The notes beneath the pieces were generated by a model that saw only the letters and a program-made list of their open reading frames with translations, ran no database searches and had not been told where the DNA came from. From Escherichia phage Mangalyan, in sequence record OR449013: 64,000 nt of DNA. One strand, 5' to 3'. The position numbers and the translations under genes were made by a program. Of this stretch, positions 32,805 through 45,153 are shown piece by piece. The first letter of the stretch is position 1; each line of letters opens with the position of its first letter.

Positions 32805-32990
32805 ATGGTAAAAAATAAATCTTTAGAGCAGGCTGAAAACCTTCTCCACGAGCTGGTAAAGGAGTGGAAAGTTGAATACTCAGATTTTAATGCAAGAGAG
32901 GGGGAAGATTATTGGCCTACGGAGCGCTCAGAGGGAGAGTGGTATCAAGATTTCATAGAATGGTTATATCAGACGTGTGATGAGGGGTGA
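32805..32990 (+). CDS. hypothetical protein (61 aa)
   Basis: ATG 32805 after AAAGGAGAC. Confidence 0.45.
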   Translation: MVKNKSLEQAENLLHELVKEWKVEYSDFNAREGEDYWPTERSEGEWYQDFIEWLYQTCDEG

Positions 32991-32992
32991 CG

Positions 32993-33448
32993 ATGTTTGT
33001 TAAATATGTAAAAACGTGCCTCAACAACCTTGGTAGAGAGCATTGGTACACCTTGCTTGAAAAAGGAGAAATTTTAACAAAATCTGGAAAGATAACTTTG
33101 ATACCCTTGGATGATAAAGACCCGTCACTACTTGTCATAGATGATTACGTTACAGGTGTGTCGTACGAGGTCTCTGTGGAGAGGTTAATACGCAGATCTG
33201 GAGGGCCTTATGACCGAAGAGAGTATGTTTTCGATTCTGTTACAGAGAAGGAGGATCCGTCTCTAATGTTTAGGATGGTAATCAGGGATATGAAATCATC
33301 TATAAATAGGATCGTAAAGGACATTAAAGAGCCTTTTAGGGTAAAAGTTAAGAAGTTTTTTGATTCTAAGATTAACATACTCGCCGTTGTACTAGGCGTA
33401 ATTCAACTTCTGTTAATTTTGCACTATCTTGAACTGTTGTTCAAGTAG
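32993..33448 (+). CDS. hypothetical protein with C-terminal membrane anchor
   Basis: ATG after GAGGGG; C-terminal ILAVVLGVIQLLLILHYL. Confidence 0.45.
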   Translation: MFVKYVKTCLNNLGREHWYTLLEKGEILTKSGKITLIPLDDKDPSLLVIDDYVTGVSYEVSVERLIRRSGGPYDRREYVFDSVTEKEDPSLMFRMVIRDMKSSINRIVKDIKEPFRVKVKKFFDSKINILAVVLGVIQLLLILHYLELLFK

Positions 33449-33508
33449 TGTGCAACAAGGCACAAAGGAGGTGCCATGATTAAATAAACTAAGAAAGAGG
33501 TAGAGAGA

Positions 33509-33856
33509 ATGCCAAAGATTAAGTCGGTATTAATGTGGGCAGCTGTTGTAGCTTTTGTAGGATACTGGACTTGGGAAACTGAATTAAAAGATATCGGATA
33601 TACCAGTCTTGAGAGCAAGGCATGCATTGGCATAACCGATGCATTCAGGCAAAATGCTATGGATCACGAATGTGTTGATGCAGATATAGATGAGAAACTG
33701 TCTAAGGACAAGGATTTTTACCATGGTCATGCCTTGCTTGATAGTGGTGACACTGTGGAATTCTGGTCGTGGTTCCGTGAAGATGGAACAATAAAGACAG
33801 CAGTAAAGATTTCCAACAAAGAGTTAATGCTGTTGCAGCAGAAGGAGGTGCAATGA
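33509..33856 (+). CDS. hypothetical protein with N-terminal signal/anchor (115 aa)
   Basis: AGAAAGAGG RBS; N-terminal VLMWAAVVAFVGYW. Confidence 0.5.
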   Translation: MPKIKSVLMWAAVVAFVGYWTWETELKDIGYTSLESKACIGITDAFRQNAMDHECVDADIDEKLSKDKDFYHGHALLDSGDTVEFWSWFREDGTIKTAVKISNKELMLLQQKEVQ

Positions 33857-34140
33857 TTTGGATATCCTACACTGATGGCACCATGCTGTATACCGCAGGT
33901 ACTAGGTATGAAGTTCAGGAGGACGATAAAAAATTTATCGTAAAAACATTTGACAAGGACGACAACCTTTTGCTAGAGTTAACTTACAAAGTTGGAGAGG
34001 TATCCAATATCCAGCTGGATTGCGGTCATAAAGATAATCCACTCAAAAAACCTGGGATAGGCAAGGCTTCAGAAGAACGTTTGTCTCGTGTTGCAGAAAG
34101 CGTTTCTCCCCAAAAATCTAAGAAGAGGATTAGAAAATGA
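33853..34140 (+). CDS. hypothetical protein (95 aa)
   Basis: AAGGAGG RBS, overlaps upstream stop. Confidence 0.5.
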   Translation: MIWISYTDGTMLYTAGTRYEVQEDDKKFIVKTFDKDDNLLLELTYKVGEVSNIQLDCGHKDNPLKKPGIGKASEERLSRVAESVSPQKSKKRIRK

Positions 34141-34337
34141 GTGACAAAATTCTTAAATTTAATACCTACTATGAGAATGATTTGAACGATCTGTATTATA
34201 TAGTGCGTAGCGAAAACCCAAATGTAGTACTGTTTTGTCGAGAACCTTTCAAAAAAGAGGAGATTGAATCTACCATGAATGTGGATCAGATTTCACACCT
34301 GCTGCTCCTTGGATCATTAAAAGAGGCTGTATTCTAA
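34137..34337 (+). CDS. hypothetical protein (66 aa)
   Basis: overlaps upstream stop by 4 nt. Confidence 0.45.
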   Translation: MSDKILKFNTYYENDLNDLYYIVRSENPNVVLFCREPFKKEEIESTMNVDQISHLLLLGSLKEAVF

Positions 34338-34356
34338 ACCAGGGTGGAGGGTTTTT

Positions 34357-34542
34357 ATGAAGCACTACTGTCTGTCTGGTAGAATGGGTGCAGATTGTGA
34401 TTGGGTTTTCTTGAAACTTGTCAGTATTCGAGAGTTCATTCCAGAGGAAGAGCAAGAAAGCGAGCTGATGTCATGGATCAACCATTACGGTAACACTTTT
34501 AGGCATGTTAAGGTGGAAGAGTTGCCAAGCGAGGCTGATTGA
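34357..34542 (+). CDS. hypothetical protein (61 aa)
   Basis: ATG after GGGTGGAGGG. Confidence 0.45.
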   Translation: MKHYCLSGRMGADCDWVFLKLVSIREFIPEEEQESELMSWINHYGNTFRHVKVEELPSEAD

Positions 34543-34544
34543 CT

Positions 34545-34634
34545 ATGATTGCATCAATATTAACGTTTATGGGTGGCGTGGCATTCGGATTCATTGTTTG
34601 CCTGTTTATAGTGATTATGTCTATGCGAGGCTGA
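34545..34634 (+). CDS. hydrophobic mini-protein (29 aa, single TM)
   Basis: below ORF-track cutoff; MIASILTFMGGVAFGFIVCLFIVIMSMRG; packed between neighbours. Confidence 0.35.
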   Translation: MIASILTFMGGVAFGFIVCLFIVIMSMRG

Positions 34635-34637
34635 ATT

Positions 34638-34931
34638 ATGAAACTTTTTGAGTGGTTTAAAAAGTTTAAATATAAAGCTGTAGCCATCGTGCCGTGGTCC
34701 ATTCAGTGGGTGGACGATGAGGGATTACCAATTCCAGGTGATAAAGACACGGGATACTGGATCATGCTTGAGAACGGGTTCGGTAAACGGAAATATTCCT
34801 GCACGGATACCTCAGGAGCATCTTTTAGGAGAATTCCTGGGTATAAATGTATGATTGTGTGGAAGATGTCTGGTGTACCTCCGGCTAATGCACAATATCT
34901 TACTACCAATCCAACCACAGAAGAGGACTAG
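34638..34931 (+). CDS. hypothetical protein (97 aa)
   Basis: ORF in packed array. Confidence 0.45.
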   Translation: MKLFEWFKKFKYKAVAIVPWSIQWVDDEGLPIPGDKDTGYWIMLENGFGKRKYSCTDTSGASFRRIPGYKCMIVWKMSGVPPANAQYLTTNPTTEED

Positions 34932-34933
34932 TA

Positions 34934-35215
34934 ATGAAAAAGATTTGCGATACAGATGTGGAGTTCAAGGTGTGTAGTAAGGAGACCTATTGGGAAGTGA
35001 GACAAAAGGTATATTTGTTTGGACTTATCCCATATTGGTCTAAATTCTACTGGGGAGCAGATGAATTAGGGAGATATGCCACCAAAGCTATGGCGCTTAT
35101 AGGTATAGCTGAATATATTGCTGCTAGGGACAGGGCTGGAAAAACCTGCTACTACACTGCTGACGAGATTCGTAACAGTGTTTACGTCCCCCAACCACCT
35201 GAAGGAGACCGTTGA
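34934..35215 (+). CDS. hypothetical protein (93 aa)
   Basis: ATG after AGAGGA. Confidence 0.5.
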   Translation: MKKICDTDVEFKVCSKETYWEVRQKVYLFGLIPYWSKFYWGADELGRYATKAMALIGIAEYIAARDRAGKTCYYTADEIRNSVYVPQPPEGDR

Positions 35216-35439
35216 TGAAAGTTAAAGTTTTAGATTCAAGCTTCTATATTGGTCAGGAGCCTTTAGTGGGTAAAGTGTTTACCGCTGTCCCTAACGAAGA
35301 TTACCCTGACCTTTTAAAAATAAAGGGTGCAGATCTTATTGCCGCTGGTGCATCTCAGGACTGCTTTGACAGCCAGTGGACCTACAACTTTGCCCTAGGT
35401 GAGGATGTGGAGATAATGGAGGACGATCATGAAGGTTAA
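35212..35439 (+). CDS. small protein, paralogue family A (75 aa)
   Basis: MMKVKVLDSSFYIGQEPLVGKV ... LKIKGADLIAAGASQD. Confidence 0.6.
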   Translation: MMKVKVLDSSFYIGQEPLVGKVFTAVPNEDYPDLLKIKGADLIAAGASQDCFDSQWTYNFALGEDVEIMEDDHEG

Positions 35440-35683
35440 AATTCTTGATTCTAACGTCTACTTGGGGCAATCCTTTCTTAAAGGGAAGGTTGTACCTGCG
35501 GTATACTTCGAAGGGTTGCCGTGGGATGATCCTGTGCGGCAACATCACAGTTATGTAGGCCACAACGTGGTGTTTATCTTAGGATCAGACCTGATCACCG
35601 CTGGTGCACCTGAATATTATTTCGGGGAAGAGTCCTATTATGCCTTTGGGGTAGGTTCAGATGCAGATATTGTAGAGCTGTGA
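35429..35683 (+). CDS. small protein, paralogue family A (84 aa)
   Basis: MKVKILDSNVYLGQSFLKGKV ... ILGSDLITAGAPEY. Confidence 0.6.
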   Translation: MKVKILDSNVYLGQSFLKGKVVPAVYFEGLPWDDPVRQHHSYVGHNVVFILGSDLITAGAPEYYFGEESYYAFGVGSDADIVEL

Positions 35684-35695
35684 TGGGTAACCGTT

Positions 35696-36094
35696 GTGAA
35701 AAATAAACTGTTCAAAGTTACAATGAAAATTCGCGGAGCTTGGAGCGTAAAGCAAGGGCGTATTCCGGAATTTGAGAAAGACTTCTACGTAGTCTCCACC
35801 TCGGAGGAGGCTGCATGCTGGCAGGCTGGCTATGCCTATGCAAGAACCTGGTACGAAGGATACCAGACTGGGGGCTATGACGGAGAAATTGTCAGCAAGG
35901 GTGTAGAAGAAATTAATGTGTTGACAAGTGAAAAAGTTTTTGTTATAGTGCATCCAGATTCCAGAGTGAAGCATTACTGGAATGCCAGAACAAAAACTTG
36001 GACACCGTTTGCAGACTCTGCTACACCACTTTTAAACCAAAAAGCTCTTGACTCTGCCCCGAGCTATGGGGTTGTTGAAGAAAAGCTAAACTGA
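35696..36094 (+). CDS. small protein, paralogue family B (132 aa)
   Basis: VHPDSRVKHYWNARTKTWTPFADSATPLL parallels RHPHSNIAYYWDVLNNEWTPDLQKATVLTPFL in 37904-38299. Confidence 0.6.
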   Translation: MKNKLFKVTMKIRGAWSVKQGRIPEFEKDFYVVSTSEEAACWQAGYAYARTWYEGYQTGGYDGEIVSKGVEEINVLTSEKVFVIVHPDSRVKHYWNARTKTWTPFADSATPLLNQKALDSAPSYGVVEEKLN

Positions 36095-36111
36095 AACAGT
36101 GAGGTGTCACT

Positions 36112-36402
36112 ATGATGGATTTAATTCTAAATATTGATAACGCAGAAGAGGTTAAAGACGATGGTGTAACAAGCATGGACCAACCATGCCCTGCCAAGAT
36201 TGACTCAAAATGGACATATAAGTTTGACGGAGAGATCTCTGCAAATGATGAAAAGGTTGTAGATGCTGCAGCCATTTTGAACGCTCTAGGGTACGACCCT
36301 GTAAATTCTTTGATCAAGGATCCTGTTGAGTTTGCAGAGTATGTTCGAAAAATGGCAGATCTTGCTGTAGATATTTTAAATACTATCGACAACAATCTGT
36401 AA
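36112..36402 (+). CDS. hypothetical acidic protein (96 aa)
   Basis: ATG after GAGGTG. Confidence 0.5.
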   Translation: MMDLILNIDNAEEVKDDGVTSMDQPCPAKIDSKWTYKFDGEISANDEKVVDAAAILNALGYDPVNSLIKDPVEFAEYVRKMADLAVDILNTIDNNL

Positions 36403-36408
36403 AAACTG

Positions 36409-36437
36409 TTGACACAACGCTTCAGCTATAGTATTAT
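36409..36437 (+). promoter_or_regulatory. sigma70-like promoter upstream of hpf homologue
   Basis: TTGACA 36409-36414, 17-bp spacer, TATTAT 36432-36437. Confidence 0.65.
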
Positions 36438-36484
36438 TGTTTTCAAAGAGAGAGTTATTCCCTCTTCTTTAAAAGGAACACGTT

Positions 36485-36802
36485 ATGCAAATTGAGATCA
36501 CTGGCAACGTAGAAATCACCGAAGGTATGGTGTCTTTCATTTCCCACAAAATGTCAAAACTGGAGCGTCTACATCCTTCTGTAAATCATGCACGTGTAAG
36601 TGTAAAAGTTGAAAATGATCACCAGGAAGTTATGGCGTTCATTTTTGACACTTCTGGAAAAGAAGTTATTGCCAAAGCTAAAGGCAGTGATGCTTACGAG
36701 GCAACTGACCGTATGGTAGATGTTGCAGCACGTCAGCTGGCTAAATGCGGTGGAAAGAAAGGTAAAGGGAAAGGAAAAGTAAAGATTGACTTTGGAGAAT
36801 GA
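36485..36802 (+). CDS. hpf: ribosome hibernation promoting factor / RaiA-family protein (HPF homologue)
   Basis: MQIEITGNVEITEGM ... KLERL ... VSVKVE ... GSDAYEATDRMVDVAARQLAK parallels E. coli HPF (MQLNITGNNVEITEAL ... KLARQLTK) over its whole length; Lys/Gly-rich tail. Confidence 0.8.
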   Translation: MQIEITGNVEITEGMVSFISHKMSKLERLHPSVNHARVSVKVENDHQEVMAFIFDTSGKEVIAKAKGSDAYEATDRMVDVAARQLAKCGGKKGKGKGKVKIDFGE

Positions 36803-36939
36803 GGTGCTACAATGGGCGTGATTAAGAAATTAGTCCCAAGTGTATAGATTGCATGCTTTGAAATTATGTTTGCAATCGCAGTTGTAGTTAATGTGTTAGG
36901 TTACGGCTATTAATATCAAATAATTGAGGAGACCTCTAA

Positions 36940-37209
36940 ATGAAAATTAAATTATTCAAAACCGAGCTGGCAGACAAAAACTGTGGACTGGTTGAAGGCA
37001 TGATCGTTGAAGCACAACCAGTGGACTACATGAAGGTAGTTCGTGATGCCTTGGGTGAAGGTTTTGATCTGATGGAACCAGCTCTGCGAGAAGATGTTAT
37101 TGAGATGGCTAAAAAGCACACACCTGAAGGTTTGGTGGTGTTTGTTGCACCTGGTAACGGAGAAGAGTTGATTGTAACCCCTGATGTGTATGAGATTGTA
37201 GAAGAGTAA
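36940..37209 (+). CDS. small acidic protein (89 aa), MKIK-type family
   Basis: GAGGAGAC RBS; starts MKIKLF, ends YEIVEE. Confidence 0.55.
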   Translation: MKIKLFKTELADKNCGLVEGMIVEAQPVDYMKVVRDALGEGFDLMEPALREDVIEMAKKHTPEGLVVFVAPGNGEELIVTPDVYEIVEE

Positions 37210-37303
37210 TCCTGCTCGGATCAGCATACTCCTTCAATAAAAAGAAAAGTTTGTAATTATTTGTGGGAAAGGAGTCCCCATCTCTTGCCAGAGGTGATAC
37301 TAT

Positions 37304-37567
37304 ATGATTATTTATTTTAAAACTTCAGGTGGATACCCTGATTCTCAAAGCTTGATCGGAAAAACGTGCACAGCATACTCACCTCTTGATGAGGAGGTAA
37401 GCGATATCATACGAGATATGTATCGGATTGACCCCCAAGAAGCTTTTGATCAAAACCTTGTATTTGTCAAGGGCTCAGACATGAAGTCTTTGGGAGCATT
37501 TCCTGAAGCAGATGATGATGCCGTTTATTCGTTTATGGCCCCTTTTGAAGCTATGGTTGTTGGGTGA
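37304..37567 (+). CDS. small protein, paralogue family A (87 aa)
   Basis: LIGKTCTAYSP ... VFVKGSDMKSLGAFPE. Confidence 0.55.
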   Translation: MIIYFKTSGGYPDSQSLIGKTCTAYSPLDEEVSDIIRDMYRIDPQEAFDQNLVFVKGSDMKSLGAFPEADDDAVYSFMAPFEAMVVG

Positions 37568-37571
37568 GAAT

Positions 37572-37904
37572 ATGAAAGTACGATTTATTGGTGAAACAAT
37601 TCCTGTGCATCTCCGGTCGCCTGAAGATTCTGCAGATCTTGCATCTCAGAAGGCGAGAGGTTATGATAAGAAAGTAATCTCAACCGATGTAGAACTTGAG
37701 GCTACTAGTTTACCTGACCCTGCTGCATTCTTTAATCATTATGGATACTATTTCAGCAATCTGATGAATATCGGTGAGCTTGTGTTTATTAGTGGTGGAG
37801 AAATTGTCAGCAAGCTTGGCGGCGATCCGGATGTCTTTCATGAAACCTGTCCTTTTGCATTTGTGGTGGGTTCAGATGTGGAAGTTATTGAGGAGGTGCG
37901 GTAA
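37572..37904 (+). CDS. small acidic protein (110 aa), family A-related
   Basis: ATG 37572 after GGGTGAG; MKVRFIGETIP ... FISGGEIVSKLGGDP ... VEVIEEVR. Confidence 0.5.
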   Translation: MKVRFIGETIPVHLRSPEDSADLASQKARGYDKKVISTDVELEATSLPDPAAFFNHYGYYFSNLMNIGELVFISGGEIVSKLGGDPDVFHETCPFAFVVGSDVEVIEEVR

Positions 37905-38299
37905 TGGTAAGCCTATACCGTGTTGAGTATAGCTCAGATACTGTGTACAACGTAAGAAGCAAAGATCGCAGCGACAGAGTGCAAGAAATGTATGTTCTTG
38001 CCGACAGTCAGTTATCTGCAGCGTTCAAGGCAGGGGCTCTTGCATCTCGTTGGAAATTTGAAGGCGGATCTTTCTATGAAGAAACCCTTGAAGATTCTGT
38101 TGTTATTTCTTCTGTAGAGGTTTCAGATGACTACGAAGGGAAAAAGTTCGTAATGCGGCACCCACACAGCAACATTGCGTACTACTGGGATGTTCTGAAC
38201 AACGAGTGGACCCCAGATCTTCAGAAGGCTACTGTGCTAACACCGTTTTTGGCAGATAAGTTCCCACCAGAAGGTAATTTATCCGCACTGTTTCAGTAA
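37904..38299 (+). CDS. small protein, paralogue family B (131 aa)
   Basis: see 35696-36094. Confidence 0.6.
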   Translation: MVSLYRVEYSSDTVYNVRSKDRSDRVQEMYVLADSQLSAAFKAGALASRWKFEGGSFYEETLEDSVVISSVEVSDDYEGKKFVMRHPHSNIAYYWDVLNNEWTPDLQKATVLTPFLADKFPPEGNLSALFQ

Positions 38300-38317
38300 T
38301 TTTCTTGCACACAGGTG

Positions 38318-38346
38318 TTGACAACACCAACCCTGTGTGAAATAAT
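38318..38346 (+). promoter_or_regulatory. sigma70-like promoter
   Basis: TTGACA 38318-38323, 17-bp spacer, AATAAT with upstream TGTGTG. Confidence 0.5.
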
Positions 38347-38375
38347 ACCTTCATCTTAACAAGACAGGAGACTGA

Positions 38376-38636
38376 TTGATGAAGATTAAACTGAAAAACC
38401 TTGAAATGGCAGAGATTCAGGATGGTGTTGATTTCCGCTCTAAAGATGGTGACATCTTAGAGGTAAATCTTCCAACCTACAAGCTGATTAAAGGTTTTGG
38501 CAACGTTCCGGAAGAGGATATTCCAGAAATTCTTATGATGTTGATTCTTGACGGAACTGTGTTTGTAGGTGAAGGTGAGAACGCTATTGCAATCCCAAGC
38601 CATTTTTATGAAGTAGTTGACGAAGAGGTGCTGTAA
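38376..38636 (+). CDS. small acidic protein (86 aa), MKIK-type family
   Basis: AGGAGAC RBS; MMKIKLKNL ... FYEVVDEEVL. Confidence 0.55.
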   Translation: MMKIKLKNLEMAEIQDGVDFRSKDGDILEVNLPTYKLIKGFGNVPEEDIPEILMMLILDGTVFVGEGENAIAIPSHFYEVVDEEVL

Positions 38637-38987
38637 ATGAAAGTAGAAATTACCGGTTTTGATGTGAATGCGGTTCCGGAAGATATTTTATCTAAATTGC
38701 CGGAAGGTTTTGGTAACGGTGTTGTGGTGGACGCTGTTCCTCCTACCAAAGACATTCTGCTGCAGTATGGTGTAGCAGAGGAAGATGTTGATAAAGTTCT
38801 TACAATGATGGCAATCGATCGTGTTGTCGTTGTTAAAGGTCTCGATAATTTTGAGAGTGATCCTCTGATTATTCGTGGAGATGACTACAAAATCATCGAT
38901 AATGAAGGCCAAGAGTTCTATGAGCCTTGTGCAGAAGATATTCTTAACTTATTACTGGAAGCAGGCACCGAAGAGGAGGACGAATAA
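38637..38987 (+). CDS. small acidic protein (116 aa), MKVEI-type
   Basis: ATG one nt after upstream stop; ends EEEDE. Confidence 0.55.
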   Translation: MKVEITGFDVNAVPEDILSKLPEGFGNGVVVDAVPPTKDILLQYGVAEEDVDKVLTMMAIDRVVVVKGLDNFESDPLIIRGDDYKIIDNEGQEFYEPCAEDILNLLLEAGTEEEDE

Positions 38988-39316
38988 TGAAGATTGACCC
39001 GTTACTGAAGGCTCGTGCAGAAAAAGCGTACACCATTAAGCTGACCAACCTAGTTCCTACTTGTCATCCAGATGTAGGTTGGCCCGAAGGTTTGGTGGAA
39101 GGAACTGTAACAGCTGCATACCTTCCTAACATCAAATACCTCATGGAGATCTTAGAGATGGATGAGGAAACTGCAGAACAGTTCCAGTTGGATATGAAAC
39201 AGAGTGGGACTCTGGTTATTCACGGGTGGTATAATACTAAAGATGCAGAAGACCCTCTGGTAACTTCTAATCTGGCATATGAAATCTTAGGGCCTTTGAA
39301 CCTGGAGGAAGACTAA
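38987..39316 (+). CDS. small acidic protein (109 aa)
   Basis: overlapping stop/start ATAATGA; GAGGAGGA upstream. Confidence 0.55.
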   Translation: MKIDPLLKARAEKAYTIKLTNLVPTCHPDVGWPEGLVEGTVTAAYLPNIKYLMEILEMDEETAEQFQLDMKQSGTLVIHGWYNTKDAEDPLVTSNLAYEILGPLNLEED

Positions 39317-39603
39317 TGAAAGATCTGGTTAAGATTAAGATTAAAGATACCAATGGGGAGCTCAGCCATTTTGGAATTAATGATGGTGACGAGCTGATCG
39401 CACACCTGCCTACCAAGGAGGTTGTAAGCAAAGCAGTTGCCGGAGAAGAAGCTGCAATGCAGGCTGCAGGTGTGGATGAAAACTATGTAGCTATGTGCAT
39501 GTGCCGAGATCAGGTTGTTCTGTATAAAGCGTATAGACCAAACGGAGCCACGGAGTGGCTTGTATTCCGACCCGAAGGATATGAAATCTTAGAGGCACTA
39601 TGA
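39316..39603 (+). CDS. small acidic protein (95 aa)
   Basis: overlapping stop/start; GGAGGAAG upstream; ends YEILEAL. Confidence 0.55.
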   Translation: MKDLVKIKIKDTNGELSHFGINDGDELIAHLPTKEVVSKAVAGEEAAMQAAGVDENYVAMCMCRDQVVLYKAYRPNGATEWLVFRPEGYEILEAL

Positions 39604-39692
39604 TAAATCTTGCCAAGGTTGCAACGGCACTGTTAATTATTTGCTGGTCAGTAACCTTAACACTGTGTCTTGTATTTCAGTGAGGTGCTTGT

Positions 39693-39956
39693 ATGAACAT
39701 CCTGATGTGGGTTGTAGCAGTGGCGTTTGTTGCATGTTTTTGCTGCTGGGTTGCGGTGAGGATTTCTGTAGCTACCCTTCGGAAGTTGGGGTTCTCAGAG
39801 TGGGATATTAATATCCTTTCTTTTCGCAATGAAACAATCTCAGCCGCCCTGCTCTGTAAGAAATTCAAGTGGGAACCTTGCGAGGTCATGAACTATCTAA
39901 GAACGGGAGATATCCCTGAAAGATTTAAAAAAGTTCTTGACGACAAGGATAAATGA
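39693..39956 (+). CDS. small membrane protein (87 aa)
   Basis: AGTGAGGTG RBS; N-terminal ILMWVVAVAFVACFCCWVAV. Confidence 0.5.
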   Translation: MNILMWVVAVAFVACFCCWVAVRISVATLRKLGFSEWDINILSFRNETISAALLCKKFKWEPCEVMNYLRTGDIPERFKKVLDDKDK

Positions 39957-39984
39957 TAGTATAGTGACTAACAAGAGGTGAGGA

Positions 39985-40125
39985 ATGACTGATTTTACTG
40001 AAGCTTTAATGATGGCCTTGTCTGTTTTAGCGCTATCGGTGTGTTTTGGGGCGTTATTCACATCTCTGGTTAAAGTTTTACATACAGTATTATTACCCAA
40101 GGAGCGCAGTAATGACGAAGATTGA
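39985..40125 (+). CDS. hydrophobic mini-protein (46 aa)
   Basis: below cutoff; ATG after AGAGGTGAGGA; ALMMALSVLALSVCFGALF. Confidence 0.4.
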   Translation: MTDFTEALMMALSVLALSVCFGALFTSLVKVLHTVLLPKERSNDED

Positions 40126-42458: not shown

Positions 42459-42654
42459 TAAGTTCTTCTCTTTTCTTTTACCGAGTAATTCGGGTTTTCT
42501 GTTCTCTTCGGTTTGAAGGGGTATGGAGATACACCTGAGTGAACAGGGTGAACAACCGAACCATTGGCTATGGCATTAGCATGGCGAAGCGGACGGGTGA
42601 CGAAAGAGGGGCCGGAGGACACCAGTCACTGCCATATGATATATGGGTGATAAC

Positions 42655-43193
42655 CTGAAGAGTCTGAATAAGTGTTTAAGTACCAGTCAGAGGAAAAGGT
42701 GAATGGTAGCCGAAGGGGGAGGGGGGTTACCTGCTTCTGTAAACATGCATCTGAAATACTACTTTAGATAACCTGAACCTGCCTTTCTGACAAATATTCC
42801 CTATTAAACTTGAATTATTTATAGAAAATACCACAACACCACTTAAGTCTTTGATTTTACACACAAATCTTACAGATATTAAACCTCTCTATTTAACATA
42901 CCTGTAACATATACTATACTCCACCTGTCTGATCAATTTCCCCAACTACATCCCCATATTTTCCCTGTCTGTACTACCCCTGCCCCGCCGGGAGTCCCGT
43001 CATATCTGGCTTTCCAGCAAATATCACACCCACAAATATCATCACCTGAAGAGGGTTTCATCCCATAATACATGCCTTACCTGAAGAGCGCTTCATACAC
43101 CACATAAATTTTTTAATTGACCCCCTCCCCGCCGCCGGAGAGGTTGGCTTTTCCCACACAGACCTGGAGAGTCAGCCAGAAATATCTGAAGAG
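42655..43193. repeat. four dispersed copies of about 15-bp motif CCTGAAGAG(G/C)G(T/C)TTCA
   Basis: CTGAAGAG at about 42655, 43046, 43081, 43186. Confidence 0.7.
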
Positions 43194-43750
43194 GGTCTAG
43201 TTCTGCCCTGTCATAAGCGGTAGCGACTGGAGTGCTGCTAGGCGGACGAAATGGGAATACTTCTCATTCTTATAACAATTCTCAAATATCGAGGCAGTGA
43301 GGCAAATTAATAGGTGAGGCCGTTCACACAGTGGCACAACATTTGCAACCTATCTTGTGGGATTGAATGAGAATACCTATCATTGTGAGAACTGTTATCA
43401 TTACGGGCAATTTAACATAATACCCATTATGCGCACCACTGGCGATACATACAGGGATTGATAACATGGGTTACTGTTTACGCACATAACAATTATATTT
43501 CTTACTATTTGTGTGGGATATAGTTAGCAGCCGATAGATTAGATATTAACCTGCAGACTTCTGACCGTCCAGACGTCTAAACGCCCACACACCAAGGATT
43601 ATACATACACTCCTGAATGTAAACAGGGCCGCAAAAATGCTACCATACAAGCTTGTAAATTTTTCATGCAGCACTTGACAAAGAGGAGAAAAACTTGTCT
43701 GACATAATGTGACCTAACTGACACAACATGACACTTTTACACACCTATTA

Positions 43751-43820
43751 GTTTACACACTGGATTGTTTACATTCCTGATTGTTCACATGCTAACCATT
43801 TACATGATTGACTGTTTACA
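43751..43820. repeat. iteron-like array: five copies of GTTTACA (variants GTTCACA, ATTTACA) at 15-16 bp spacing
   Basis: copies starting about 43751, 43767, 43783, 43798, 43814. Confidence 0.75.
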
Positions 43821-43833
43821 CACCGATAATCAG

Positions 43834-44083
43834 CCATGCCATTCGTTTGCATGACAATAATTATACATGACAATAATCGCACTGATCATAATTAGCATGA
43901 CATAATATAAAAGCAGGGCAACTATTAGCAGATCTATAGTTGCCTTGCTTGTTATGTCATGATTAACTAAATACAAGGCAACTATGATCTGATTAATAGT
44001 TTGCAGACAAACTATCACGGGGGTGATGGTTACTGCTTTTATATTATGTCGCGACTCCGTCGCGCCATGCCATTCGTTTGCAT
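43834..44083. repeat. direct 19-bp repeat CCATGCCATTCGTTTGCAT (two copies) flanking inverted repeats GGCAACTAT / ATAGTTGCC
   Basis: 19-mer at 43834-43852 and 44065-44083; palindrome arms at 43917-43925 / 43936-43944; second related palindrome about 43977-44005. Confidence 0.7.
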
Positions 44084-44697
44084 AGTTGCCTTATTGTTAC
44101 AGATAAAATAATTGTATTGTTAATTATTTCTTATCTTTCTATTAGTCATCTAATGATTTCAGTTAATATAGTAACGTACAGTAAACATTAGACGACTAAA
44201 GATTTCTATGCTTATGGTAACCTAACGTGACAATTCCAGACTGTTTACGAAAAATGTTGACACCTGGGCCGATTTATGTTATGCAGTTTACACGAATAAT
44301 TATTTTATGCAGGTATTGACTATTCCGTTATTCTATGGTTGGAATAAATGCTTAGCAGGCTATAGAATGGCGAGCGTACGTAAATTCTGAGATCTGGCGG
44401 CTATAGTTATACTCGATTTTTCACGTAGAAAACGCTTTTGTAGTTATGTAAGTGTATGACTTATAAAGTTGACAAGCTATTGAATATATGCATCAGGTTA
44501 AATTTTGTGCAAATGCTGCATTACGTGCAATTTTGGAAGGAAAAACGTGTAAAAATGGCCCTGCTACCACACAATGAAAAATTATGCAATAGTTATTTTA
44601 TATGTATGTTTGTACAGTGTGTGGGATTGATGGCTCGTCAATTATTCCACTTGCCAGGTAGGGCCGTTTATGGTAGGGGGAAGAGCAGACAAAAAGA

Positions 44698-44715
44698 AAG
44701 GGGCCTAAGCCCCTT
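44698..44715 (-). terminator. rho-independent terminator for leftward transcripts
   Basis: AAGGGGC CTAA GCCCCTT; on minus strand followed by UCUUUUUGUC. Confidence 0.65.
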
Positions 44716-44733
44716 GATAATTCAGTTAAAAAA

Positions 44734-45153
44734 TTATAATGATTCGTATATTTCAAAAATCCGATTTGCCAGGTCGTTACGGTAGCGGAATTTTTCCTCG
44801 CGTTTGATCATAAGATCTTTATAGCCGTACTCTTTAAGCACTTCATTAACTTTATGGCGGCATACTTTCATATTATCCTGCGCGTCACCAATAAATCTGT
44901 TGCTATGGTGCATGGCTTTAATTTCTTCTTCCAGGACCAGGGCAACTATGCGGACCGGATCAAGCTGATAGGCGGTAACATCCATGCGGCATTGTAGACG
45001 GCTTTTAACGTCTGCCACCGGATATACTGCAACCTCTTCCCCGTCAACATTGACAATAATTAGTTTACCATCGATTTCGAATCCTTTCGCCGCCGGACCG
45101 TGACAAAAAGCGTTATCAAAGCTATATGCCGGATTATTAGATTTAATGTTCAT
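44734..45153 (-). CDS. hypothetical protein (139 aa)
   Basis: ORF followed by terminator. Confidence 0.55.
   Translation of the reverse strand: MNIKSNNPAYSFDNAFCHGPAAKGFEIDGKLIIVNVDGEEVAVYPVADVKSRLQCRMDVTAYQLDPVRIVALVLEEEIKAMHHSNRFIGDAQDNMKVCRHKVNEVLKEYGYKDLMIKREEKFRYRNDLANRIFEIYESL

Follow-up and report, generated by a model that had tools for sequence, protein, structure and literature searches.

What would a lytic phage do with a ribosome hibernation factor? The question is raised by a small gene in a 64,000-nucleotide stretch of the genome of Escherichia phage Mangalyan (sequence record OR449013; the whole of this stretch is called the window here), which a sequence-only reading had taken for a homologue of the bacterial proteins HPF and RaiA with its own promoter. 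The gene is in fact not new. It is the same gene as gp139 / ORF144 of phage rV5 (ABI79209, YP_002003641; 97% protein identity, three amino acid changes), its product and the 'ribosome hibernation factor' of the BASEL phage DrSchubert (Bas50) share 100% of their residues, it is found in about 117 phage records, and the rV5 protein was included among the virus-encoded ribosomal proteins of Mizuno et al. 2019 (Nat Commun, PMC6375957), who expressed and tested it. Gene, promoter and family assignment all became public with the rV5 genome record, in which ORF144 is labelled 'sigma 54 modulation factor', while the RefSeq product is 'RaiA'. A full-text search of the literature returned no work on its function, expression timing or role in infection beyond Mizuno 2019, and hpf, rmf and raiA are not mentioned in the LL12 host-factor screen. 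What is added here is the dN/dS analysis, a syntenic clade at 64% identity with a basic tail, a ceiling of 44% on the identity to any cellular relative, the pattern of the contact residues and the lack of a phage RMF.

Family, predicted fold and basic tail

The 105-residue protein matches the Pfam model PF02482 (Ribosomal_S30AE) with E=4.4e-13 and 50.2 bits (gathering cut-off 23.7), over protein residues 3-88 and profile positions 1-83 of 88, and the model TIGR00741 (HPF/YfiA) with 50.0 bits (cut-off 40.9). Both scores lie above the curated cut-offs, which bears out the homology to HPF that had been proposed from the letters. The best sequence matches in the PDB are the E. coli HPF chains 2rql, 4v8h and 6h4n (E ~1e-12), which are colinear with the phage protein over residues 1-89 as the sequence-only reading had claimed, and the ORF sequence is exactly as quoted there. 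The protein also falls into phrog_12469 (E=3e-69). The HPF equivalog NF007780 is the top-scoring model with 57.5 bits, but this is far under its cut-off of 125, and the RaiA equivalog NF007654 gives 20.3 bits against a cut-off of 158. Pairwise identity is 40% to E. coli HPF and 21% to YfiA. Judged by these comparisons, the phage protein belongs to the HPF/RaiA family as a diverged protein of the single-domain ('short') kind, and is closer to HPF than to RaiA. The RefSeq name 'RaiA' is therefore imprecise, given the low identity to YfiA, the low score against NF007654 and a tail that is basic and not acidic.

The AlphaFold2 model, a predicted and not a solved structure that was built with 24 homologues and with family members in the alignment, has a mean pLDDT of 79.6, the means of ten-residue blocks being 84-91 for residues 1-80 and 75 for residues 81-90. 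It has strands at residues 2-7, 33-42, 47-55 and 60-67 and helices at 13-29 and 70-89, which is the beta-alpha-beta-beta-beta-alpha fold of about 90 residues expected of the family. Its top Foldseek match is 6h4n_x, the HPF chain in a 100S ribosome structure from E. coli (89 columns aligned at an rmsd of 1.1 A, with 42% identity); the best 35 PDB matches are all HPF, YfiA or pY chains, and weak matches to dsRBD proteins rank after them.

The core (residues 1-89) has a pI of 6.05 versus 6.04 for the core of E. coli HPF, and the tail that follows has a pI of 10.0, with six Lys/Arg and two Asp/Glu among its 16 residues. The description of this end as Lys/Gly-rich was accurate (residues 88-100 read CGGKKGKGKGKVK), and the low pLDDT predicts that the tail is disordered. 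The extension past residue 89 amounts to 16 residues in the phage protein, six in E. coli HPF and 24 in YfiA. Its G/K repeat is kept in the rV5 clade, where the last one to six residues vary and phage Murica has a truncated version, and the divergent clade carries the tail KSKGIDKRTAKWDY, which is another sequence, of similar length and also basic. The coordinates are collected in Table 1.

Table 1. The hpf locus and other features of the window, in positions of the 64,000-nucleotide stretch
Feature	Position	Strand	Remarks
Sigma-70-type promoter	36409..36437	+	TTGACA-17 nt-TATTAT; equals rV5 P144; 11/12 consensus positions
Possible 7-bp stem-loop	36446..36466	+	AAGAGAG / CCCTCTT, one A.C mismatch here; weak evidence
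Shine-Dalgarno-like AAGGA	36473..36477	+	7 nt 5' of ATG; read from sequence
hpf-like ORF	36485-36802	+	ATG start, 105 aa
HPF core domain, residues 1-89	36485..36751	+	Predicted beta-alpha-beta-beta-beta-alpha; Pfam and NCBIfam matches, AlphaFold2 model
Basic Gly/Lys-rich tail, residues 90-105	36752..36802	+	GKKGKGKGKVKIDFGE, then stop codon; pLDDT <50
ORF pair	35212-35439; 35429-35683		40% identical paralogues, both phrog_5009
ORF pair	37304-37567; 37572-37904		Weaker relatives of the phrog_5009 pair
ORF pair	35696-36094; 37904-38299		132 and 131 aa, both match phrog_7379
Small ORF after hpf	36813-36914		TAG at codon 12
ORF-poor stretch	42620-44450		About 1.8 kb
Sole ORF of at least 50 aa in it	43830-44018	-	
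Low-GC stretch	43600-44800		GC 0.35-0.37
Inverted-repeat cluster	43899-44111		Perfect 18-nt arms 43899-43916 / 44033-44050; hairpin 43911-43950

Promoter and neighbourhood of the gene

The promoter lies within the 82-nt gap between the end of the upstream ORF (36402) and the ATG. That the gene has a near-consensus promoter of its own, as had been read from the sequence, is supported by the close match to the consensus, by the -35 hexamer and the preceding AAACTG, which are invariant across 19 orthologous loci including those of the divergent clade with 64% protein identity, and by the rV5 record NC_011041, which annotates P144 at the matching position. Moreover, sites with at least 11 of the 12 consensus positions number 18 in the window and 2.2 +/- 1.4 in Markov shuffles (about eightfold enrichment), and these strong sites are co-oriented with the gene blocks, on the + strand until 42.4 kb and on the - strand from 45.2 kb, with one exception among the - strand sites; a loose consensus scan of the region gave 19 sites where 16.4 were expected, which is no enrichment. 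These sequence features indicate that phage hpf is transcribed by the host sigma-70 RNA polymerase, within a block of small early-type genes. Furthermore, AAGGA or GAGGA is kept at the Shine-Dalgarno site in the aligned rV5-clade orthologues.

For the possible stem-loop between promoter and Shine-Dalgarno site, 95% of the cells are paired in nine rV5-clade sequences and one pair is compensatory in two of them, while the covariation score is equalled by 69 of 500 shuffles. The stem-loop is not present in the aligned loci of the divergent clade. A structured 5' UTR element was rejected on account of this weak covariation, a fold of the present copy that is no better than shuffled (z=0.82) and the lack of any Rfam match for the 5' UTR, and the stem-loop was retained only as a weak feature.

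The gene had been placed within a cluster of small acidic proteins that may also target translation. The first half of this statement is right, 14 of the 21 other ORFs within 32987-40125 having a pI of 4.0-4.9. The second half found no support: each of the ten neighbours tested lacks a Pfam match and falls into a PHROG of unknown function, and they were dropped as candidate translation factors. Blocks of small early-type genes like this one are usual in phages.

Several other details of the surroundings were recorded. Paralogues occur among the neighbours, in that two overlapping ORFs upstream of hpf have a pair of weaker relatives downstream of it, and the two members of phrog_7379 flank the gene. 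The small ORF directly after hpf encodes a 33-aa hydrophobic peptide, MGVIKKLVPNVEIACFEIMFAI[A/V]...GYGY, in rV5 and DrSchubert, which have GAG where the window has its TAG. Farther downstream, the ORF-poor stretch lies at the junction of the + strand and - strand gene blocks and has no Rfam match; its probable counterpart in rV5 is the reported 'non-coding' region 104013-106618, and it could be a replication origin or terminator region.

Distribution, selection and natural variants

The window belongs to a Vequintavirus: the DNA of the region is 94-96.5% identical to that of 117 GenBank phage records of this genus (rV5-like lytic E. coli myoviruses), and hpf is present in all 117 records that share the neighbourhood. 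With E. coli HPF as the tblastn query, 129 of 50,697 phage records were matched, about 117 of which are Vequintavirus. The other 12 or so comprise a few unrelated records including the jumbo phage XaC1, along with short fragments that are unverified and a single bacterial contig, so that, at the tblastn sensitivity used, an HPF is rare in phages outside this genus. In addition, searches of the window and of all 50,697 phage records detected no homologue of RMF. A scan of IMG/VR for orthologues gave two loci, and the orthologues were therefore drawn from the GenBank phage records.

Across 14 distinct rV5-clade alleles (91 pairs) the pooled dN/dS is 0.077, pairs with the window allele have dN/dS of 0.05-0.08 at a dS of ~0.24-0.26, and 40 of the 106 codon columns vary synonymously only. 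This pattern of substitutions argues that phage hpf is under strong purifying selection and is functional in nature; viral ribosomal-protein genes as a whole are under purifying selection on average (PMC6375957).

The gene is also found in a second, Vequintavirus-like lineage, where a protein of 103 aa (P0004) with 64% identity is encoded at the same position, on contigs of 124-137 kb. The contigs of this lineage (L002-L005; metagenome contigs of 44-126 kb and a contig of 136.8 kb from an E. coli draft) are colinear with 31.4-42.6 kb of the window, with 68-88% DNA identity in patches, and their 2.5-kb region has no near match among the 50,697 GenBank phage records. One copy lies on the phage-like contig AATLQU010000010, which has the size of a whole phage genome, in the E. 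coli draft assembly GCA_012894635.1. With an orthologue at the same position in both, the gene predates the split of the two lineages. When 1.84 billion cluster representatives were searched exhaustively with HMMER, 41 proteins came up at E <=0.001, and apart from P0004 the closest cellular relative has at most 44% identity, which points to a long independent evolution of the phage lineage. The 'recent transfer from the host' stated in Mizuno 2019 is not supported for this reason. The second-best match of the pass, P0006 (1160 aa, nine matched stretches), is a tandem-repeat protein without an HPF domain and was discarded as spurious. Likewise, a carrier-state or prophage reading was rejected, because 5,426 complete E. 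coli genomes contain no match to the DNA of the region and the only divergent-clade 'E. coli' protein comes from the ~137-kb phage-like contig.

Some natural variants were observed among the isolates. In YP-6 (OQ376695; L013, 301-618) there is a TAA at codon 4 and the gene is annotated from Met15, in Murica (L016, 301-600) the product is cut to 99 aa inside the Gly/Lys repeat, in APECc02 the protein match covers residues 1-88 only, and in JES2013 (L009, 301) hpf starts with GTG. From the early stop in YP-6 and the truncation in Murica, hpf may be dispensable in culture. The final one to six residues differ among isolates (GE, WD, LD, RE, FE), a variation that suggests slippage in the GGNAAR repeat.

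The records themselves contain several problems of annotation. Under the name 'Campylobacter phage' (A147, A135, D#, C2 and others; MG0656xx) there are 18 records, labelled as phages of Campylobacter jejuni, that are 94-96.5% identical to the rV5-like coliphages here, and the Campylobacter host labels look doubtful in view of this identity and of D# (MG065647), which is marked UNVERIFIED and classified as Vequintavirus. Two further errors concern the records OR062525, OR062530 and MT884008-10: hpf is called 'ATP-dependent protease La type I' in several Vequintavirus records, and in nomo and ECP32 an unrelated downstream ORF of 89 aa is mislabelled 'sigma 54 modulation factor'. Such errors in the annotation of Vequintavirus hpf may propagate.

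Ribosome contacts and the possible role of the protein

Beyond family, fold, conservation and promoter, which follow from sequence and comparison, the role of the protein has to be argued from its contact residues and from the published test. For the residue counts, the phage proteins were aligned with 38 bacterial family members and numbered as in E. coli. Both phage lineages keep K23, K26, a basic residue at position 29, E44, D69, Y71, D75, R83 and K87, and the window clade only keeps Q84, E60 and K91, which are His, Val and Ser, respectively, in the divergent lineage. Both lineages have lost R17 (to V; conserved in 28 of the 38 bacterial proteins), K80 (to V/T; K/R in 31 of 38) and K89 (to G/S; 32 of 38), as well as H88 (to C/Y), E51 (to M/S), M70 (to A) and T53 (to F/R). 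H55 corresponds to Phe in the multiple alignment and to Asp in the pairwise one, the loop being ambiguously aligned. Position 29 is R in the window protein and Q in E. coli HPF, the phage has CGGKKGKGKGKVKIDFGE in place of the conserved KHKEK with which helix 2 ends, and a one-residue deletion after G7 in the beta1-alpha1 loop is polymorphic, V18, nomo and Murica reading ITGNNVEIT like E. coli HPF.

Of the eight basic positions that are conserved most strongly, the phage thus keeps five (K23, K26, R/K29, R83, K87) and lacks three (R17, K80, K89). The sequence-only reading had held that loss of the conserved basic ribosome-contacting residues would speak against it, and such loss is present at these three positions and not at the other five. 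The residues of E. coli HPF that touch 16S rRNA from helices 1 and 2 are K23, K26 and Q29, and K80, R83, K87, K89 and K91. The contacts reported for HPF also involve K26 and Q29, T53 and H62, and H55 and E60 (bioRxiv 10.1101/2025.10.07.680626). Dimerisation of S. aureus HPF depends critically on K84 and R87, and binding was lost only in the quadruple mutant K27/R30/K84/R87 (PMC4889938). These four residues correspond to E. coli K26, Q29, K80 and R83 in our alignment check, so that three of the four equivalents are kept in the phage and the equivalent of K84, K80, is lost.

For the published test, E. coli NM522 carried the rV5 gene on pBAD24 and was kept induced with arabinose throughout; the cells were harvested at OD600 = 1 and their ribosomes pelleted through a sucrose cushion containing 500 mM NH4Cl (PMC6375957). 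The crude extract yielded four peptides of rV5 HPF, but neither the 70S nor the 100S fraction yielded any; viral bS21 and bL12, by contrast, were detected in ribosomes. The abundance of 100S was unchanged, the 70S profiles were normal, and the cells grew overnight and to OD 1 during the induction. The authors named growth phase, true loss of binding or dissociation at high salt as reasons for the negative result (PMC6375957). Lack of ribosome association on expression was the other outcome that had been said to count against an HPF, and it was indeed seen after the 500 mM NH4Cl wash, as a negative result that is not decisive. Bacterial HPF and RMF, too, come off ribosomes in high-salt washes.

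Our preferred reading, drawn by analogy and to which we give an even chance of being right, is a reversible, HPF-like parking and protection of idle host ribosomes, bound weakly and held as 70S. If it behaves like HPF and YfiA, its place would be the mRNA/tRNA channel of the 30S subunit, at the head-body interface of non-translating ribosomes, where it would make its contacts via the retained K22, K25 and R28 of helix 1 and R83 and K87 of helix 2, together with the new disordered Lys/Gly tail. Binding in the decoding channel is suggested by the retention of R83, K87, K26 and K23, by the strong constraint and by the expected sensitivity to salt. This binding would be weaker and salt-labile, with the ribosomes held as idle 70S like those of YfiA and not driven to 100S dimers, as may be expected from the loss of R17, K80, K89 and KHKEK and from the lack of a phage RMF. 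In the same way, the loss of K80 and K89, the basic tail, the missing RMF and the absence of an effect on 100S point away from a 100S-promoting factor, and towards either a weaker YfiA-like parking or a competitor. The lack of a rise in 100S and the growth to OD 1 on expression would fit a mild factor that does not promote dimers. The benefit for the phage might be that idle host ribosomes are parked and protected during takeover or in slow-growing hosts, and so remain usable for phage translation. What counts against this preferred reading is that no rV5 peptide was found in the purified 70S and 100S (PMC6375957) and that near-invariant positions are changed in both lineages, among them K80, whose S. 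aureus equivalent matters for dimerisation; the YP-6 and Murica variants also hint that the gene may be dispensable in the laboratory.

The competitor just mentioned was proposed by Mizuno et al. 2019 (PMC6375957) as a decoy against hibernation, and we consider it unlikely, yet worth keeping in mind. Here the phage protein would compete with host HPF or YfiA at the 30S site, or its tail would block the RMF site; it would not support RMF-dependent dimerisation and would be easily released, so that the ribosomes of starved or defence-arrested hosts remain or become available for phage mRNAs. Much of the remodelling would suit such a decoy: K80 (the equivalent of S. aureus K84), K89 and KHKEK, which are tied to dimerisation and tight binding, are lost, the tail is of a length between those of HPF and YfiA, the latter heading to the RMF site, no RMF homologue accompanies the gene in the window or in the 50,697 phage records, and expression brought no increase in 100S and no association that survives the salt wash (PMC6375957). 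However, the sigma-70 promoter looks constitutive and shows no specificity for starved hosts, and 100S is not visibly reduced in the published profiles, though cells at OD 1 hold little 100S (PMC6375957).

Rather doubtful is an exaptation, in which the fold has been kept and the role on the ribosome has gone, the protein now binding a different partner, an RNA or a protein, from the host or the phage. It would account for the missing ribosome association in the sole test (PMC6375957), for a contact surface remodelled in both phage lineages and for the lack of a cellular relative above 44% among the 1.84 billion cluster representatives; besides, the HPF fold resembles dsRNA-binding domains, as in the weak Foldseek matches that follow the HPF ones, and S. 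aureus HPF is reported to have a second, non-ribosomal partner, YwlG (PMC9522360). Against it stand the five of eight basic positions that are kept, among them R83 and K87, whose contacts are with modified 16S nucleotides, and the structural core D69, Y71 and D75 (with Q84 in the window clade), which is kept under strong purifying selection; in addition, the 500 mM NH4Cl wash of the sole test is harsh.

The sequence-only reading had suggested that a phage HPF could silence host ribosomes, and a shut-off of this kind, by which ribosomes are forced into 100S or inactive 70S as a takeover weapon or in a pseudolysogeny-like stall, now seems improbable. The known activity of the family is a block of the A and P sites, and the strong sigma-70 promoter would permit early expression, but a non-selective block would stop phage translation too. 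The growth of E. coli overnight and to OD 1 under continuous induction, with normal 70S and no extra 100S (PMC6375957), argues against strong silencing and a strong shut-off. Moreover, the search for an RMF encoded by a phage, in the window and in the 50,697 phage records, gave nothing, and the 5,426 complete E. coli genomes, in which this region has no match, give no hint of a carrier state. Lastly, a decaying passenger gene without current function is very improbable, because the early stop in YP-6, the truncated tails in Murica and APECc02 and the variable last residues are outweighed by a dN/dS of 0.05-0.08, by the universal presence in ~117 genomes and by the retention of the gene with its promoter in the 64%-identity lineage.

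A bolder proposal, which we offer as a speculation with a low chance of being correct, is that the phage copy is no ordinary hibernation factor: the protein may have been remodelled, with K80, K89 and R17 lost and a basic disordered tail gained, to hold the HPF/YfiA site without RMF-dependent 100S formation. In this way it would undo host hibernation or forestall it, or else it would protect the decoding centre and the 16S rRNA 3' end against nucleases of the host or against defence toxins that target ribosomes. If so, Vequintaviruses could exploit starved or defence-arrested cells. Whatever its role, the gene offers a rare natural handle on the question whether lytic phages manipulate ribosome hibernation in dormant or starving hosts. 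The interest that remains in the gene lies in its genus-wide constraint, its remodelled contact surface, its new basic tail and a sole test that was negative under harsh salt.

Comparison with known systems places the gene as follows. The orthologues in rV5 and other Vequintavirus phages share its position, the P144 promoter and the neighbours, and differ only as alleles within the closely identical flanking DNA. E. coli HPF (YhbH; 2rql, 6h4n, 4v8h), a short HPF as found in Gammaproteobacteria, has the same single domain of ~95-105 aa, the same predicted fold (rmsd 1.1 A) and 40-42% identity. Relative to it, the phage protein keeps K23, K26, E44, E60, D69, Y71, D75, R83, Q84 and K87 and replaces R17, K80, K89, H88, E51, T53, H55 and M70, and where E. 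coli HPF ends in KHKDKLKQH, the phage has the longer disordered Gly/Lys tail instead. The E. coli HPF gene belongs to the rpoN operon, whereas the phage gene is under a phage sigma-70 promoter, and unlike short HPF, the rV5 protein gave no sign of promoting 100S (PMC6375957). With E. coli RaiA/YfiA (protein Y) the phage protein has the family, the fold and a C-terminal extension beyond helix 2 in common, but the YfiA tail is longer and ends acidic, while the phage tail of 16 residues is basic and unrelated in sequence; by analogy, the two may share the outcome of idle 70S without 100S. HPF-family genes also occur in the Xanthomonas jumbo phage XaC1 and the Cronobacter phage GAP32 (Mizuno 2019, PMC6375957) as independent acquisitions. 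In the XaC1 protein K80 is kept, R83 is lost and the tail is long and acidic, and by this different substitution pattern together with the acidic tail the XaC1 copy was acquired separately; phrog_8990 is a separate family. More broadly, the viral bS21 and bL12 are genes of the translation apparatus that, like this hpf, have been captured by large lytic phages.
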